A stretch of 64,000 bases of DNA from Octopus vulgaris (lineage: Eukaryota). Shown in pieces: positions 34,915-53,600 of the stretch (position 1 is the stretch's first letter; the number at the start of each line of letters is the position of its first letter). Position numbers and translations under genes: made by a program. The notes under the pieces were generated by a model that saw nothing but the letters and a program-made list of their open reading frames with translations, ran no database searches and had not been told where the DNA came from. The stretch spans positions 20,646,001-20,710,000 of the forward strand of contig OX597828.1 in assembly GCA_951406725.2 (NCBI GenBank), given 5' to 3'.

Positions 34915-34962
<48 letters not shown>

Positions 34963-35093
34963 AATATAGATACATGCTTATTATATATATAAATATGTAT
35001 TTACGTATAGGGAAATATTTATATCTATATATGTATATGTAAATTATATGGATATATATATATATACACATATGCATATATATAGGTATGTAG

Positions 35094-35134
<41 letters not shown>

Positions 35135-35744
35135 GACATAATTGTGTATATATACATGTATATATGGGTATGTATGTATATGTATATATATATGTATATA
35201 TATGCATGTATATATATATATATACATATACATAGGTATGTATATATATATATATATGTATATATATACATATATACATATATACGGTTCCGTTTTCAGC
35301 AGAGAAAGACGTGATTGCCTTTGCTCTGTGAAAAAGTTTGCATAGAACGGCGAAATAACCCACTGTAGTTGCAAAACGTAAAACTCTAAGTCATAGAGAT
35401 CACTACAACACTTTGGTTAAAAATATTTTTAAAAATATATATATAAATATATACATATACACAGTAATTTTCATTTTCGCCGAAACGCACATGGTGCAAA
35501 AATAACTGAATCAAGTTATCTCCTGCAAGAAAGAAAAAAGAAGCATCTCTCCTGAAAAAAATCCCGTAAACCAAAAAAAAAATAATAATCCAGTCCACAT
35601 TGTTGGATTAAGTATCAATTTCATCTATTTCATATTTTATTTATTATTCTATTTTATCTTTCACTTAGGCCCACATCTTAGTTAAAGTTGCGATCGTCAT
35701 TTTGTTTGTTTACATTTTCAATAACTGTTCTCGATATAATAATT

Positions 35745-36945
35745 TTCCAGATACTCTATCTTCTAATTAGCCTTAAGATTAAATTAAATAACGTTTAATA
35801 TTGATACCGTCAAATTAGCCTTAGGATTAAATTAAATAACGTTTAATATTGTTTAATATTGTTAATAATTATTGTTAATTAGCCTTAAGATTAAATTAAA
35901 TAACGTTTAATATTGTTTTAATATTGTTAATAATTGTTCAGATACTCTATCTTCTAATTAGCCTTAAGATTAAATTAAATAACGTTTAATATTAATAACG
36001 TCTAATTAGCCTTAGGATTAAATTAAATAACGTTTAATATTGTTAATAATTATTGTTAATTAGCCTTAGGATTAAATTAAATAACGTTTAATATTGTTTA
36101 ATATTGTTAATAATTACTGTTAATTAGCCTTAAGATTAAATTAAATAACGTTTAATATTGTTTAATATTGTTAATAATTATTGTTAATTAGCCTTAGGAT
36201 TAAATTAAATAACGTTTAATATTGTTTAATATTGTTAATAATTATTGTTAATTAGCCTTAAGATTAAATTAAATAACGTTTAATATTGTTTTAATATTGT
36301 TAATAATTCTTCAGATACTCTATCTTCTAATTAGCCTTAAGATTAAATTAAATAACGTTTAATATTACCCACACTCTAATATAATATTAACATTGCTAAT
36401 ATATTTTCAGATACTCTATCTCCTGATTAGCCTTAAGATTAAATAACGTTTTTATCCACACTCTAATATAATATTAATATTGCTAATATATTTTCAGATA
36501 CTCTATCTTCTAATTAGCCTTAAGATTAAATTAAATAACGTTTAATATTAATAACGTCTAATTAGCCTTAAGATTAAATTAAATAACGGTTAATATTGCT
36601 TAATATTGTATATATAATTTTTCAGATACTCTGTCTTCTAATTAGCCTTAAGATTAAATTAAATAACGTTTAATATTACCCACACTCTAATATAATATTA
36701 ATATTGCTAATATATTTTCAGATACTCTATCTCCAAATTAGCCTTAAGATTAAATAACGTTTTTTTTTTTTTACCCACACTCTAATATAATATTAATATT
36801 GCTAATATATTTTCAGATACTCTATCTCCTAATTAGCCTTAAGATTAAATAACGTTTTTACCCAAATAACGTTTTTACACAAACTTTAATATTGTTAATA
36901 TTTCTTTTTCAAGTACTCTATCTTCTAATTAGCCTTAATATCTTC
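35745..36945 (+). repeat. AT-rich complex tandem array immediately upstream of LINE ORF1
   Basis: About 17 copies of TAATTAGCCTTA(A/G)GATTAAAT..AATAACGTTT combined with modules TTTCAGATACTCTATCT and ACCCACACTCTAATATAATATT. Confidence 0.93.
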
Positions 36946-36999
36946 CTGTCTTCTCTCGAACATAATTAGATAGATAAACGGATAGACGGATTATCCAGC

Positions 37000-37911
37000 A
37001 TGTCCAGAGCATGGAGACGTGACGAGCTGGATTTATTCGTACGAGCATGGGAGTGCGCCGGCGGAGATAGCCCTAGCGAGGTGATTGCGGCTGCGCTGAA
37101 GAGCAGAGGCTACAAGAGGACAGCGGCTCAGATGGAGCGAAAGAGACAGGAATTCGTGCGCTCATATGCGCTTGTACAGTCGCACATTGGCGCACTTGAT
37201 GCCATCTTTGAGAACGAGCGGGGCAAAGATGGCAAGAATGGAGACGATGAAAGAAGTCACCCCCACCTGGTGGACGCCCAGGAGGAGGTTTTGAATGAGA
37301 AACCTGCCCGGGAAGTGAACCCAGGTGCAAGTTCTCCAACCGGCAGCAAGGGCCATGGAGACGGAGAACCCGGTGAAGAGGTAGAGGGAGGAAGAAGAAC
37401 TAAAAGAAGGACTGGAAGAGCTAAAGGAAAAGAAAAAGCTCAAGCAGGACCAAAGAGAGAAACAACCAGGAGTAGAAGTGGAACCGCAAAGGATGGAACC
37501 AAACAGCGCACACGGGTGTGTATGTTCTACCTGAGAGGTTCCTGCTGGCACGGAAAGGAAGGTGCAGGCTGCCGCTTTGCACATCGGGGACCCTGCCACA
37601 GAGACACGAGGCAGATGGACAAACCATCAACACAAAGAAAAGGGATGGACTACGCACCACCTGCCCCAAAGCGGAGGTACGCAGATGTTGTGCGCGCCAC
37701 AAACAGCCAACATGATGTTGTCGAAAGAGCAGCTGCTGAGCAACAATCTTTTTTGTGCATGGCACAAAAGATTGTACAGCAGCTGACCTGGCTTCATCAA
37801 ACCCAAGCCCGCAGGTGGGACTACCCACTATATACCAGACCACCACAGCAAACAGACACAGGATGGACACCGCCGGCAACAACGTACACCTCACCTCGAT
37901 ACTCCTACTGA
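37000..37911 (+). CDS. LINE ORF1 protein, 303 aa: Myb/SANT(trihelix)-like N-terminus, basic linker, CCCH zinc finger
   Basis: ATG in CCAGCATGT context. W-x3-E-x2-LF..W....IAAALKSRGYKRTAAQMERK...Y pattern; CMFYLRGSCWHGKEGAGCRFAH is C-x7-C-x8-C-x3-H; lies directly 5' of ORF2. Confidence 0.85.
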   Translation: MSRAWRRDELDLFVRAWECAGGDSPSEVIAAALKSRGYKRTAAQMERKRQEFVRSYALVQSHIGALDAIFENERGKDGKNGDDERSHPHLVDAQEEVLNEKPAREVNPGASSPTGSKGHGDGEPGEEVEGGRRTKRRTGRAKGKEKAQAGPKRETTRSRSGTAKDGTKQRTRVCMFYLRGSCWHGKEGAGCRFAHRGPCHRDTRQMDKPSTQRKGMDYAPPAPKRRYADVVRATNSQHDVVERAAAEQQSFLCMAQKIVQQLTWLHQTQARRWDYPLYTRPPQQTDTGWTPPATTYTSPRYSY

Positions 37912-40859
37912 ACATCAGAGGACTGCAAACACTCAGTAACAGGACAAAGATCCCGTTCCTGAGAGACTTTGTTGCATGCAATCAAGCCTTATGCATAGCA
38001 CTTACAGAAACGCACCTGAAACCGGACATAGCAGATGCGGAGTTACACATACCACAGTATGCTGTACTACGGACCGACAGGAAAGAAAGGAGTCATGGAG
38101 GTGTTGCTATGTACATCCGTGAGGACCTCACACCCCAGGTCCTCTTGTCATACTCAAACTCGGTGTGTGACACACTAATTGTACATATTAGGCAACTTGA
38201 TGTAGTTGTGTGTGCTACATATCGCCCTCCAGATGCCCCAAGCCATGTGGGCAAGTTTGAAGACTGCCTTATAAAAATAGAAGAAATTCTAACCACATTA
38301 GAACAACACATAGGTGTGCTTCTTATGGGAGACTTCAATCTGCCCAATGTCAGATGGCCCGAGGGCCTTTCTCTCCCAGGAATGACAAGATGTGAACGAG
38401 GACAGGCGAGGTCCCTCCTGAACCTCATCAACACCCTGTACATGGAGCAGGTAATACTCCAACCAACCAGGGCAGGTAACACACTGGATCTCTGCTTCAC
38501 AAATGACATGGATCTCATCCATAATGTGAAAGTGACACCGACACTACTCTCGGATCACAACATGATAGAGCTGACCATGTACGGGCCAAAAGAGAGCACG
38601 GACATGCAGCCTACAAGAAACCCTCAAAATCTTTCCAGCTTGAACTACCATAAGGCAAACTGGAAACAAATTGAGAAAGAGATCCTCAAACAAAACTGGC
38701 CTAAATGTCTCTCCTCGCCAGACATCGACGTGAAACTTCAACAATTCATGTCTGTAATGCAAGCCATATGCTACAAATGTGTCCCAGAGAGAAAGGCCAC
38801 TGTACACAAGAACAAAATCCCCAGAGAGAGGAAAATTTTAATGAGACGGCGTACGAAATTTTCAAATCGCCTAAACAAACAGATTGAAAGCAGTGAAAAG
38901 TCCCGCCTAAAAATAAAACTGTTGGAAATCGAAAAATGTCTGCAACTCTCCCATGAAAAAGAAAGAGCAGACAAAGAAGCCTGGGCTATAGAAAACATAA
39001 AATCTAACCCCAGAGCTTTCTACAGGTATGCCAAAGAAACAGCTACAGTGCACTGTAGAATAGGGCCACTCCTCGAAAAGGATGGCACACTTACAGGAAA
39101 ACCAATGAGGGTAAGTGAAATACTGAATGAGCAATTCAAGAGTGTTTTCACTCCACCCCTTGGGCATCTCCAAATCACCAATCCAACTGACTTTTTTACC
39201 ACTGCAGATATAAAATCAGAGGCGGCGACGATAGATTACATCGATATAAAGGAAGACGATGTAACCAAGGCTATAGATGAAATGAAAACAGACTCAGCTA
39301 CTGGCCCCGATGGATTCCCGGCAATCCTCCTAAAAGCATGTAAGAGAGTCCTAGCAAGACCACTGCAGTTCCTCTTTCAGAGCTTCCTTGCAGCTGGCAA
39401 ACTTCCAGGAAAACTGAAGGAAGGTAAAATATGCCCCATTCATAAAGGAGGTAGCAGAGCGGAAGCCAAGAACTATAGACCTATCTCTCTGACCTCACAC
39501 ATCAGCAAGGTCATGGAACGAATAGTCAGAAGGAAGCTGATCACCTTCCTTGAAGAGAATGACTTGCTGCCCGACACCCAACATGGTTTCCGACCAGGGA
39601 GAAGCTGTTTAACTCAGCTCCTACAACACTATGACTGGGTGCTGAAACGGGTGCTCAACCACTCAAATGTGGAAGTCATATATCTCGACTTTGCAAAGGC
39701 CTTTGATAAAGTCGATCATGGAATGATATGTCACAAACTGCGTGATCTCAACATAGTTGGAAAACTGGGAGAATGGCTTCATGACTTTCTGAAGGATAGA
39801 AGTCAGGTGGTAGTAGCCAATGGGGCCACCTCCATTAACACACAAATAGTGAGCGGTGTTCCGCAGGGCACTGTTCTGGGACCACTACTGTTCATAATGG
39901 CCCTCTCAGACATGCCCTCAGCCACGCAGAGAGCCACGATCACAAGTTATGCAGATGATACAAAAGTTTCACAGGCAATACAGAACCCTGAGGACACTAA
40001 ACACCTGCAATGTGAGCTGGACGAAATATACAAGTGGGCTGAAAAGAATAGCATGCAGTTCAATGCTGGAAAGTTTCAAGCTTTATACTATCAGCATGCA
40101 AAACTGAATGCAATACCCAATGAATACACTGGACCCGGAGGGATTGCAATCCCAGAGGCACAATCAGTGCGTGACCTGGGTATTCACATGAGTGATGACG
40201 CGACCTTTCATGTACATGTTGCTAAACTGACAATGAAATGTAGACGGCTGGCTGGCTGGATTCTTAGAACCTTTAGAACAAGAGAACAAGAAACCATGAT
40301 GGTCCTCTGGAAGACACTTGTCCTAAGCCACTTTGACTATTGCTCTCAGCTATGGTCACCATCCAGTGTCAAGTTGATCACAGAACTTGAGGCGATCCAA
40401 CGAAGCTACACAAAGAAGATAGCCTCTATGCAGAATGTAAGCTACTGGGAAAGACTCAAGAGATTAAAATTATATTCCCTGGAGCGTAGGCGGGAAAGAT
40501 ATGCCATAATATACATCTGGAAGATCCTGGAGGGAAGTGCCCTGAACTTTGGCATCGAGAGTTACGCAAATGCCAGAACTGGGCGCCACTGCGTGGTGCC
40601 TAGGACTCCAAACCTGCCATCAAGATGTAGGACAAGATTCTGTGATAGCCTGGGCTTCCGAGGCCCACAGCTCTTCAATATCCTCCCGAAGAACCTGAGA
40701 GACCTGCATGGGGTGGATACAGATGTCTTTAAAATGAAGCTGGATCTCTTCCTGTCAGGTGTCCCAGATGAACCAACTTCACGGCAGGAGGGGCAGATGA
40801 GGGCAGCTGCATCGAACTCTCTCATGCACCAAATAGCAGTTGCTAGAAAGCCTCCATGA
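37863..40859 (+). CDS. LINE ORF2: apurinic-like endonuclease plus reverse transcriptase, 998 aa from the first ATG
   Basis: APE motifs LNIRGL, LTETHL, YRPP, GDFN, TLDL, SDH. RT motifs [43 protein letters not shown]1-type C-terminus [10 protein letters not shown]. Frame is open from 37740; the track start at 37755 is GTG. Confidence 0.97.
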
Positions 40860-41037
40860 AGTGAAACCAAGTAGCAACACCAAATGGCGGTGCCCCAGCA
40901 TGGCCACAGCTCATAAGCTGAAACTAGAATCAATCAATCAATATGCAGACATATATATATATATATATATATATGAATATATATATATATATATGCATGT
41001 ATATATATATATATATATATACATATACATAGGTATG

Positions 41038-41146
<109 letters not shown>

Positions 41147-50632: not shown

Positions 50633-53600
50633 TAGTTTTATTTTTATAGCGTACTTTCACTTCACTACCGAGCGCAGCTCTGTGTGCCTTAGGTATGTGC
50701 TGTGATTTGTTGTGATGCTCTGATGGTTATTGTATGGAAGGTGTTCTGCGTAGGATGTGTGCAGTGCCTAGTAGTGCAATTTTCTCTATGTCATATGTGT
50801 TTGTAAGTCCTGGTGTTTTTGTTATGTATTTGTCTGAATATTTTTTTATCATGCCTAATGCACCTACTATGATAGGAATTGTTTCTGTTTTTAGATTCCA
50901 CATTCTGGTTACCTCTATTTTCAGGTCTTTGTATTTTGAGAGTTTTTCCATTTCTTTTAGAGACACGTTGTCATCTGCCGGTATTGATACATCAATTAGA
51001 AAGCATTTTTTCTTTATGATCTCTGGTCTGTTGGTCTTAATTTCTCTATCTGTGTGTATCGGCATATCCCAGAGTATGGTTGCTTTCTCGTTTTCCGTGA
51101 CCTTTTCTGGTGTGTGCCTATACCATCTTTTTTCTGTTGTTATTCCATAATGTTGGCATAGTTTCCAATGTATGTAGGTTCCAACTCCGTCATGTCTGTG
51201 AATATATTCCTTCTTAGCCAGGACTGGGCAGCTAGAGATAATATGATTTATTGTTTCTTGTCCATCTCCACATATTCTGCAGTTACTTGTTATATTTATT
51301 TTCATTACATGTTTTTGGTAATTTCTTGTGGGGAGGCTTTGGTCTTGTGCTACAATTAAAAATCCCTCTGTCTCTGATTTGAGTCCTGAGCTTCTCAACC
51401 ATTGCTGGGATTTTTCTTTGTCTATTTCTTTTGCGTTTAGTTTAGCCCAGTATTTACCATGAAAGGGCTTTTCTTGCCATCGTTTTATTATGGTTCGTTG
51501 CTGTTCTATTTTTAGTTTGGATTTCATTTGTTTTATAGCTTTTGTTGTTTCTTCATCTTCTTCTTCTTCTTCATATTTATTAGGTGGTATGATTTCTTGT
51601 TTGTATTTGTCAGCTTCCTTAAATACTGAGAACAGTTTTTTGTTTTGCTCGTGTTTTGCCGCTATTTGTATCAGTTTTCCTTCCTTCTGAAGTAGATATT
51701 TTTGCAGTCCTATGGTGGTTATTTTATAGTAGTTTTCCAGTTGTATAAGGCCTCTACCACCTTCAATACGTTGTATATATAGTCTTTCTATGTCAGATTT
51801 TGGGTGATGCATCCTAGATCCTGTCATTATTTTTCTTGTTTTCCTATCTATTTTGGTCAGTTCATTTAGTGTCCAATTAAGGATATTGTAGCTGTAACTT
51901 ATAACTGGGACAGCTAAAGTATTAATACCAATTATCTTGTTTTTAGCATTGAGCTCTGTTTTTAGTATTGATCTAACTCGTCTATAATATTCTTTTTTAT
52001 TTTCTCTTTCATTTGTGTGTGTTGTGTCTTATCTAGTTCATGGATTCCTAAGTATTTGTAAGTTTGGCTTTGGTCTAATTCTTTTATTTCATTGGTTTTA
52101 TCTAGTGTGATGTTGCTACTCTTAACTAGTTTTCCTCTTTTCATGGTTACTTTGGCGCATTTTTCTAATCCAAATTTCATATCTATTTCTTTGGTAAATC
52201 CATGAACTGTCTTTAATAGTGTTTCCAGCTGTTTGTCATTTGCAGCGTATAGTTTTAGGTCATCCATATATAAAAGGTGGCTGATCGTTTTGCCGTAACA
52301 TTTATATCCGCATCCAGTTCTATTTAGCATATCAGATAGAGGTGACAGTGCCAAGCAGAAAAGGAGTGGAGAGAGCGTGTCTCCTTGGAATATTCCTCTT
52401 CAAATGGGGATGTCTTTGGTTTTCAAGAGTCCCTCTTTTGTTTGGAGCTGTAGCACTGTTTGCCATTTATTCATAGAGTGCCCTATGAATTTTATGATTG
52501 TTGGTGCTACTTTGTTAATGGCTAGTGTTTCGAGGATCCATGTGTGGGGGATGCTATCAAACGCCTTTTTGTAGTCGATTCAGGCAATACTGAGGCCTTT
52601 CTTCTTTCTGTGGCTGTCTTCAGTTATGGCTTTATTAATCATTAGTTGATCTTTACAGCCATATGAGCCTTTGCGGCATCCTTTCTGCTCTTCTGGGAAC
52701 AGGTTGTTTTCGTCCAGGTGCTTGTTCAACCTTTGCAATATCACTGCAGTAAATGCCTTGTACATTGTAGGGAGACAGGTTATTGGTCTGTAGTTTTCTG
52801 GTTTTGCTGTCTCATTTGATTTGGGAATTAAGATGGTTTTCCCCTTCGTGAGCCATTCAGGCATTGTCTCTGGCTCTGCTAGTATGTTGTTAAAGTTTTC
52901 AGCCAGCTTTTTGTGCATTCCTGTTAGATATTTCAACCAGAAGTTGGGGATCTTGTCGTGCCCAGGTGCCTTCCAGTTGCTTAGTCTTTGCAGTGCCTGG
53001 GTGACCTCTTCAGTTGTTATGGGGGTCCAAAGTTGCTCAGATGCTGAGTTTGTTGTTTTGATACTCCTTTTATTTGGTTGTTCTTTCGCCGACCATATTT
53101 CTCTCCAGAATTCTTCCACTTCTTCTGCCGTTGGTGCTGCAGTGATTTCTATTTTATTTTTGCCAAGTTCTTGGTAGAACTTTTGGGGTTGGAGTTGAAC
53201 TTTTTGTTTTGTTCAAAGAAGCGCTGGCGTTTCTCGTACCGGCGGATCCTTTGTGCTTTGGCAAGGAAACCTTGCTTCAGCTTTTCTTTTATCTCAGGTA
53301 AATCTTTTTCTGTGATGTTATATTTGCGGAGTATTTTTGTTTTCTTATTGTTGCTCAGTAGCGTTGATTGTCTACTGATTTCATTAAGAATCGACAGATC
53401 TTTTCTCATTTTTAGTATTTTGTTTTGGATGTTATTTATCCACAGGGTTTGTTTAGGTGTTGGTACTCCTGTTTGGATGGGTTTGAGTGAGTATCCAGCT
53501 TCTTTTGTGGCTGCAGTGGCTGCTGCGTATACTAAGTCATTTAGCTCAGTGATATCGCTTTTTGTTTCAGTGGCTATTAGTTCCGTGACGGCTAGGTTTA

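Follow-up and report, generated by a model that had tools for sequence, protein, structure and literature searches.

What does a domain of DNA-binding type do on the ORF1 protein (ORF1p) of an octopus LINE, and how did it get there? The usual view is that LINE ORF1 proteins act as RNA chaperones and that the insertion site is chosen by the ORF2 endonuclease or, for R2, by DNA-binding domains of the reverse transcriptase (RT) protein. The question arises from a 64,000-nucleotide stretch of Octopus vulgaris DNA (GenBank assembly GCA_951406725.2, contig OX597828.1, positions 20,646,001 to 20,710,000), hereafter the window, in which a first-pass annotation had proposed an ORF1 that joins a Myb/SANT-like domain to a CCCH finger, possibly for targeting or autoregulation. 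Positions given below are those of the window.

Structure and age of the element

The + strand of the window carries a complete LINE, with a 5' untranslated region (UTR), ORF1, ORF2, and an (AATC)n tail. Its start was located to ~4 bases at about position 35285, and the ~1.7-kb 5' UTR (35285..36999, +) belongs to the element, as indicated by a common start among full-length copies and by sequence common to the copies. ORF1 (37000..37911, +; 303 aa), with at least 130 scored matches in the genome, precedes ORF2 (37863..40859, +; 998 aa) and overlaps it by 49 nt. Pfam analysis of ORF2 revealed an APE endonuclease (Exo_endo_phos_2, E = 5e-12) and an RT (RVT_1, E = 2e-30) and found no domains beyond these two. 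The 3' UTR (40860..40942, +) closes with the (AATC)n tail at 40928-40942, which consists of 2 to 7 units across 37 copies. TRF analysis revealed TA-type arrays on both sides of the insertion, namely, a (TA)n-type microsatellite in the 5' flank (34922..35284) and a (TA)n microsatellite in the 3' flank (40951..41146).

The UTR of full-length copies ranges from 1.4 to 2.0 kb and includes an AT-rich tandem array (35750..36940, +; TRF) whose length differs from copy to copy; in this lineage a 12-base AT-rich core is present in 14 exact copies at 35764-36926. The array also repeats a splice-acceptor-like word. Contigs of four sequencing runs, which are only presumed to be RNA, cover ORF1, and no UTR splice joint was seen in them. 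In several young copies (L002, L005, L010, and L018), a piece of the 5' UTR is duplicated.

Comparison of 40 copies, mostly the best ORF1 matches, with the window copy gave a median identity of 99.6%, and both ORFs were open in 18 of the 40 copies checked. Thus, lineage A, to which the window copy belongs, is a many-copy family, and it is young and intact, as the annotation had supposed of the element. The features of CR1 elements, i.e., two ORFs, an ORF2 with APE and RT, and a short tandem-repeat 3' tail, are all present, and by this layout and tail the element is provisionally classed as a CR1-type LINE, the RT trees holding relatives without named CR1 reference RTs. The outgroup loci in these trees have ORF1s with PHD and RRM-like modules. 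According to Table 1 of Bonar 2026 (PMC13282606), CR1 is the sole Jockey-group type among the recently active LINEs of O. vulgaris, and the same paper counts 787 insertions for 13 CR1 families of recent activity.

On the opposite strand of the window (50727-52330, -), the remains of another LINE encode a motif of a restriction-like endonuclease and end in an (ATT)n array. We take this second element to be Dong/R4-like.

A Myb/SANT-like domain at the ORF1 N terminus

Residues 1-77 of ORF1 (37000..37230, +) were assigned to a putative Myb/SANT-like domain of the trihelix type on the basis of Pfam, profile comparison, AF2 modeling, structure search, and dN/dS. The domain is present in five octopus lineages, designated A to E; the ORF1s of lineages A to D are composed of the Myb domain and one CCCH finger, and those of lineage E of the Myb domain and four. 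The residues that the annotation had read as a Myb/SANT pattern occur in the proposed order (W5, E9, L12, W17, I29-A30, L33, G37-Y38, R40-T41, Q44, K48, and Y56), although their spacing is looser; W17 ends helix 1 and is separated from I29 by a gap of 11 residues. The second and third Trp of host Myb/SANT proteins are replaced in ORF1 (S26/N and R49/K). Of the Trp core, W5 alone is kept (15/18), with N/S and K/R at the second and third positions in lineages A to D and Y and I in lineage E.

The window protein itself fell below the curated Pfam cutoff of 27 bits for PF13837 (Myb_DNA-bind_4), scoring 15.9 bits as a whole and 20 bits over residues 1-80 (E = 0.00093), and 6 of 22 homologs matched this profile at E ≤ 1. 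In contrast, the homologous domain of lineage E cleared the cutoff (29.9 bits, E = 7.6e-7). A genome search with PF13837 gave 43 matches above the cutoff, of which 30 were retrieved; 25 belonged to LINE lineage E, and the remaining five, with no ORF2 nearby, look like host genes. Residues 3-73 of the window ORF1 (P0001) are 26% identical to lineage E (BLASTP, E = 3e-10), and hhalign scored the domain of lineages A to D at 97.7% against lineage E and at 95.5% against the five host Myb/SANT proteins over the cutoff. A donor gene for the domain was not found, these five host matches all being distant.

Harbinger ORF1 is a Myb/SANT-like DNA-binding protein. As the window protein, taken alone, lies below the Pfam cutoff, chance or a one-off chimera with Harbinger or a host gene at this locus could be put forward as the source of the Myb-like stretch. 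This explanation, whose probability we put close to nil, is ruled out by the same architecture in well over 100 copies and in five lineages, always before ORF2; moreover, host Myb/SANT genes match the family profile far worse (E between 0.003 and 0.27) than lineage E does. The domain precedes ORF2 at every one of 32 loci from lineages A to D and one further family, as well as at all 20 lineage E loci, one locus in each set having only the end of ORF2.

An HMMER scan of 1.84 billion proteins returned 32 matches, several of which are unrelated CCCH proteins, and word-indexed protein searches returned 1 and 6 relatives; of 10 HMMER matches looked up, 5 were labelled O. vulgaris or O. sinensis. 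The alignment of 22 homologs, covering residues 1-75, was composed of 19 HMMER matches, P0001, and two lineage B copies. K34, R40, Q44, K48, and Y56 are at least 90% conserved in the homolog alignment, and the linker is poorly conserved. The domain has a predicted three-helix core followed by a fourth helix, with a conserved basic helix 3 (R40, Q44, R47, K48, K/R49, and R54) in which R40 and K48 are each kept in 21 and R47 and R54 each in 17 of the 22 homologs. With its basic residues conserved, helix 3 is the candidate DNA-binding helix, if the domain has one. Residues 1-72 have a net charge of +2 in the window copy and of +1 to +6 in six relatives. Considering the loss of two of the three Trp and a net charge of only +2, a SANT-like protein-binding role or an RNA-binding role is also possible.

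The AF2 model based on the homolog alignment has helices at residues 7-20, 25-35, 42-60, and 63-77 (pLDDT 86.7). Foldseek ranked RAD MYB first (E = 0.32, probability 0.98, TM 0.62/0.76), with TEAD4, the DNAJC2 SANT domain, and GT-1 near and calmodulin rows interspersed, although neither model had a match at E ≤ 0.001. Among 48,161 chains, VIA-align likewise placed RAD MYB at the top (Z 7.7, rmsd 2.4, 58 aligned), followed by LUX (7.6), TEAD4 (7.5), GT-1 (7.4), DNAJC2 SANT (7.3), and Zeste (6.9); these top Z scores are all <8, and such scores can reflect a common arrangement. Myb/SANT clusters predominate among the ESM Atlas matches, the best of which scored 0.86-0.87, below the lead level of 0.9. 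Compared with solved structures by sequence, the N-terminal domain matched just ribosomal S8 and further weak, unrelated rows. With lineage E above the Pfam cutoff, hhalign values of 95-98%, and a predicted fold for which Myb, SANT, and trihelix proteins rank first, the match that the annotation had expected was recovered, and the ORF1 N terminus is predicted to have a Myb/SANT-like (trihelix-type) three-helix fold homologous to PF13837 members. Similar to PF13837, GT-1 trihelix, and Drosophila Zeste, it has three helices, the first Trp, E-x-x-L, I-A-x-x-L, G-[FY]-x-R-[ST], and the Q and K of helix 3; unlike them, it has its second and third Trp replaced, a shorter loop 1, a fusion to a CCCH finger, and no DDE transposase partner.

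When the window copy was compared by the Nei-Gojobori method with six older copies of the subfamily, in pooled comparisons that are not independent of one another, dN/dS was 0.22 in the domain and 0.12 in residues 223-272, versus 0.63 in the linker and 0.67 in the finger, the last over 27 codons with few silent changes. The Myb-like domain is therefore kept by purifying selection.

CCCH finger, linker, and C-terminal helix

The K/R-rich linker noted earlier corresponds to residues 130-172 (37387..37515, +), with 17 K+R versus 3 D+E, and is predicted to be disordered (pLDDT <50). It is followed by the CCCH zinc finger (37519..37584, +), whose ligands C174, C182, C191, and H195 agree exactly with the C-x7-C-x8-C-x3-H spacing that had been read from the sequence. 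Pfam zf-CCCH matched it at E = 0.0008 and 19.7 bits, slightly below the cutoff of 20.5, and comparison with Muscleblind CCCH fingers gave E values of 1.5e-5 to 5.6e-4. The ligands are invariant or almost so across 10 diverged ORF1s and fit C-x(7-8)-C-x(4-8)-C-x3-H. No RRM, CCHC, PHD, transposase-22, or esterase was found in the window ORF1 (Pfam, E ≤ 10) or in the 22 homologs, in line with what the annotation had said of CCHC, PHD, esterase, and RRM, and the AF2 model of ORF1 leaves no room for a beta-sheet domain.

Toward the C terminus, AF2 predicted a long conserved helix at residues 237-273 (37708..37818, +), a candidate oligomerization helix that lies in the region of low dN/dS (residues 223-272); its heptad a/d positions are hydrophobic in 7 of 11 cases at best. 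This helix, the 1.7-kb 5' UTR, and the (TA)n target described below were all absent from the first-pass annotation. Two further occurrences of ORF1 are worth recording. In O. sinensis, a partial LPIN3 (lipin) prediction terminates, at P0012 residues 381-446, in a fragment of the ORF1 linker, reflecting either exonization or a gene-model error. In addition, a diverged member at 92.07 Mb on C10 (L113) represents an ORF1-only form with an internal deletion, in which ORF1 continues directly into the final 46 codons of ORF2.

Origin of the ORF1 architecture

CR1/L2 elements (Jockey superfamily) have been divided into ORF1 types I to V, with RRM, CCHC, PHD, transposase-22, esterase, and zf/lz in the table of Metcalfe and Casane 2014 (PMC4120745), the main text of which has 0 occurrences of "Myb," "SANT," and "CCCH." The octopus element is similar to these types, as characterized there, in having two ORFs, an ORF2 with APE and RT, a tandem-repeat tail, and a modular ORF1 moving between lineages, but its ORF1 has no module listed in that table and would file as type V (unclassified).

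A metagenome scan with the ORF2 alignment, from which 80 loci were kept, revealed that the RT-nearest loci with a visible ORF1 (L122, L125, L131, L137, L138, L140, and partly L135) encode three tandem CCCH fingers, preceded in four of the triple-CCCH loci by a helical and PHD-like module. These relatives share with the octopus element an RT identity of 35-40%, a homologous finger 1 (hhalign 93% with the octopus finger), and a short C-terminal helix after the fingers; unlike it, they have three fingers, often with the helical and PHD module in front, no Myb-like domain, and no (TA)n flanks that could be seen. The Myb profile had no match among the 80 loci (best E 0.52), and none at E ≤ 1 with lineage E in the profile. 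The helical module before PHD in sister-clade ORF1s was considered as a Myb-like candidate and rejected (hhalign 0.5%). As an observation in its own right, the triple-CCCH ORF1 (the six loci fully named above and P0030) is widespread, occurs with or without the helical and PHD module, and is mostly missed by Pfam.

Since the non-octopus relatives have triple CCCH without Myb, the CCCH finger is best read as clade heritage and the Myb domain as an addition. The survey of the nearest RT relatives thus leaves the pairing that the annotation called atypical partly so; a Myb domain with CCCH is a type absent from the main text of PMC4120745, whereas CCCH itself is usual for the wider RT clade.

Phylogenetic analysis indicated that lineages A to D, with 64-73% ORF2 identity between them, group with an Argonauta protein in a single RT clade (support 100/99) and that lineage E is placed elsewhere. 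Trees joining E with A to D were rejected for the RT (p-AU 0.006, 40 rows) and for the endonuclease (p-AU 0.0125, 41 rows); the grouping tested was defined once a first tree had been inspected. The endonucleases of E and A to D are 35-38% identical. Lineage E (L321:4514-5674 (-), L323, and L325) has a 423-base UTR, a (ATCTAAGTTT)-type tail, and an ORF2 36-38% identical to that of the window.

Silent divergence in lineage A peaks in the N-terminal domain (pS 0.51 versus 0.14-0.31 elsewhere), and the 5' start of lineage C copies is of either a D-like or an A/B-like kind. Because of these two features, a transfer of the 5' module is favored, and the Myb domain likely reached E and A to D by 5'-module exchange inside octopuses rather than through repeated loss elsewhere; this is held at "likely" because the AU group was chosen after the tree and few non-octopus ORF1s are known. 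Alternatively, the Myb domain may be ancestral and have undergone losses, ORF1 being visible for just ~7 non-octopus relatives. Separately, the 5' starts common across lineages fall into two kinds (L089, L092, L095, L103, L112, and window 35285-35300), a pattern resembling promoter swapping. One of the kinds is presumably YY1-like and the other similar to a site for ETS factors.

Insertion into (TA)n repeats

A flank was counted as TA-repeat when at least 70% of steps in 30 bases were AT/TA, with 3' ends located by position in the fetched loci, not by DNA search; 3'-flank counts cover lineages A, B, C, E, and F and the RTE. Results revealed TA-repeat 3' flanks in 31 of the 37 young lineage A copies with an intact 3' end and TA-repeat 5' flanks in 30 of 39 mapped (40 copies in all), compared with 2.3% of background positions (20 evenly chosen 10-kb stretches, 200 kb) and 38% of very AT-rich windows. 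Lineage A insertions are thus concentrated in (TA)n, a strong but not strict preference (6/37 outside), target-site duplications being unreadable within the repeats. The older copies of lineage E had TA 3' flanks in 8 of 17 cases, and under a looser rule (background 5.2%) such flanks were found in 3/3 copies of lineage B and 4/4 of lineage C.

Two controls from the same genome gave far lower values. Young RTE copies had TA flanks in 2 of 29 cases (P = 3e-10), and the Myb-less CR1-like lineage F in 5 of 39 (P = 4e-10 versus A and 0.013 versus E), or 6/40 when L372, a distinct TA-flanked locus, is counted; five true duplicates were removed from lineage F, and five loci had no mapped end. Lineage F itself lies above background (13-15% versus 2.3%). 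By eye, no (TA)n was present in the visible 3' flanks of non-octopus relatives, whose hosts are not necessarily (TA)n-rich. Lineage F (L341-L390) is abundant and young, with a Cys-rich, Gln-rich ORF1 and an (ATT)n tail; its ORF1 appears PHD-like and RRM-like by eye and has no Pfam matches. Several of its copies share an identical downstream flank, as would result from nested or segmental spread. Inside a Helitron-like stretch (L385), another family was observed, this one with a (TAAC)n tail.

A possible role of ORF1p in target choice

We propose, at a probability of roughly 40%, that ORF1p packages RNA and that the added Myb-like domain binds (TA)n DNA or chromatin and steers the CR1-type LINE particle there. 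The proposal starts from the architecture, its conservation, the Myb/SANT homology, the youth of the copies, the (TA)n flanks, and the occurrence of the domain in two groups that the RT trees do not unite. ORF1p would coat the element RNA via the CCCH finger, to judge from the family of this finger, together with the basic linker, and according to the model may multimerize through helix 237-273. Displayed in this way, the several Myb-like heads would attach to (TA)n DNA, or to the chromatin on it, and so steer the particle to (TA)n sites, where ORF2 would then nick and prime reverse transcription, aided by AT at the end of the tail. There is a precedent in R2, in which, as described in PMC12503042, a Myb domain follows the N-terminal zinc finger of a non-LTR element protein and binds target DNA; by the same description, the R2 Myb lies within a single RT/RLE protein, whereas the octopus Myb-like domain lies on the separate ORF1p of an APE element.

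The targeting role suggested by the annotation gained correlative support, with a (TA)n preference in both Myb-bearing groups and a weak one in the two Myb-less controls; the link is a correlation drawn from two independent groups and two controls. E and A to D are not one clade by RT or endonuclease, so the target they have in common is not explained by recent descent of their endonucleases from one source.

A close rival, which we consider a real possibility, is that the endonuclease, together with T/A microhomology at the tail, chooses (TA)n and that the Myb-like domain does another job, such as histone or protein binding, nuclear import, or RNA binding. Endonuclease-led target specificity is the rule for APE LINEs, and Takahashi and Fujiwara reportedly found in 2002 that the endonuclease of R1-clade LINEs carries target specificity. 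Several results fit this explanation: AT or AAT follows the tail at all 37 junctions, the best fold matches include SANT domains, the net positive charge of the Myb-like domain is weak, the Myb-less lineage F is still enriched over background, and only about half of the older lineage E copies lie in (TA)n. Moreover, the microsatellite-biased Penelope-like Naiads, which occur in Octopus spp. too, are described in PMC8557442 as preferring (TA)n without such an ORF1. However, with the endonucleases of E and A to D so diverged and not one clade, an endonuclease-led bias either arose twice or is ancestral, and no (TA)n was seen by eye in such 3' flanks of non-octopus relatives as are visible. Lineage F, whose (ATT)n tail offers equal T/A microhomology, is nevertheless rarely TA-flanked. 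Simple repeats as safe landing sites are likewise described for the telomere-targeted SART1/TRAS (PMC7265360); these elements and Naiads belong to other clades with other endonucleases, and SART1 ORF1 is described as RNA-binding.

The other role named by the annotation was autoregulation, in which the Myb-like domain would bind its own 5' UTR (in lineage A, the AT-rich tandem array) and regulate transcription of the element. Myb/trihelix domains are transcription-factor modules, and the repeated 12-mer of lineage A could serve as a binding site in this scenario, but the domain is conserved even though the UTRs are unrelated (an AT-rich array in A, CT-rich in B to D, and 423 bases in E), which makes autoregulation weaker. 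No 8- or 9-mer with at least three G+C was common to the 5' UTRs of the five lineages, AT-only words having been filtered out. The suggestion thus drew no support, and we consider it improbable.

Still more improbable is an origin of the (TA)n flanks partly after insertion, by slippage from a short AT seed, or through survival of harmless insertions, with the domain a relic that is neutral to targeting. Microsatellites expand quickly, and RTE elements are said to seed microsatellites. Nevertheless, long arrays lie on both sides of copies that are 99.6% identical, 5'-truncated ends included, and equally young RTE copies are without such arrays, while the purifying selection on the Myb-like domain argues against a relic.

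Returning to steering by the Myb-like domain, a broader version would be that octopus CR1-type LINEs captured a Myb/SANT domain on ORF1p, exchanged it across two RT lineages that are only distantly related, and rely on it as a swappable module that directs an unspecialized APE to (TA)n; this version is less likely than not.

Implications for octopus LINEs

Bonar 2026 and its supplement, in the parts available, contain nothing on ORF1 or targets of the CR1 families (PMC13282606); similarly, CR1 and Myb are not mentioned in the accessible part of Petrosino 2022, and ORF1 domains are not treated in that of a bivalve survey (PMC10294476). In the literature searched, with Repbase, Dfam, and subscription journals outside the scope, we found no LINE ORF1 described as having a Myb/SANT or CCCH module and no CR1 described as (TA)n-targeted. 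Within the same scope, the architecture is not already catalogued, being absent from the main text of PMC4120745; the (TA)n-biased octopus LINEs thus carry a conserved, real, and apparently uncatalogued ORF1 type. Even if the targeting proposal is false, Myb/SANT with CCCH and the wider triple-CCCH are ORF1 types lacking in the ORF1 table of PMC4120745.

A DNA-binding-type domain on ORF1p that tracks target bias in two lineages provides a direct test of whether ORF1p picks the site, and swap experiments are simplified by the many intact copies and by the Myb-less controls that this genome supplies. If the proposal is true, RNA-based gene insertion would gain a targeting module that can be separated from the rest, and it would be easier to account for how a large, repeat-rich octopus genome tolerates active LINEs.
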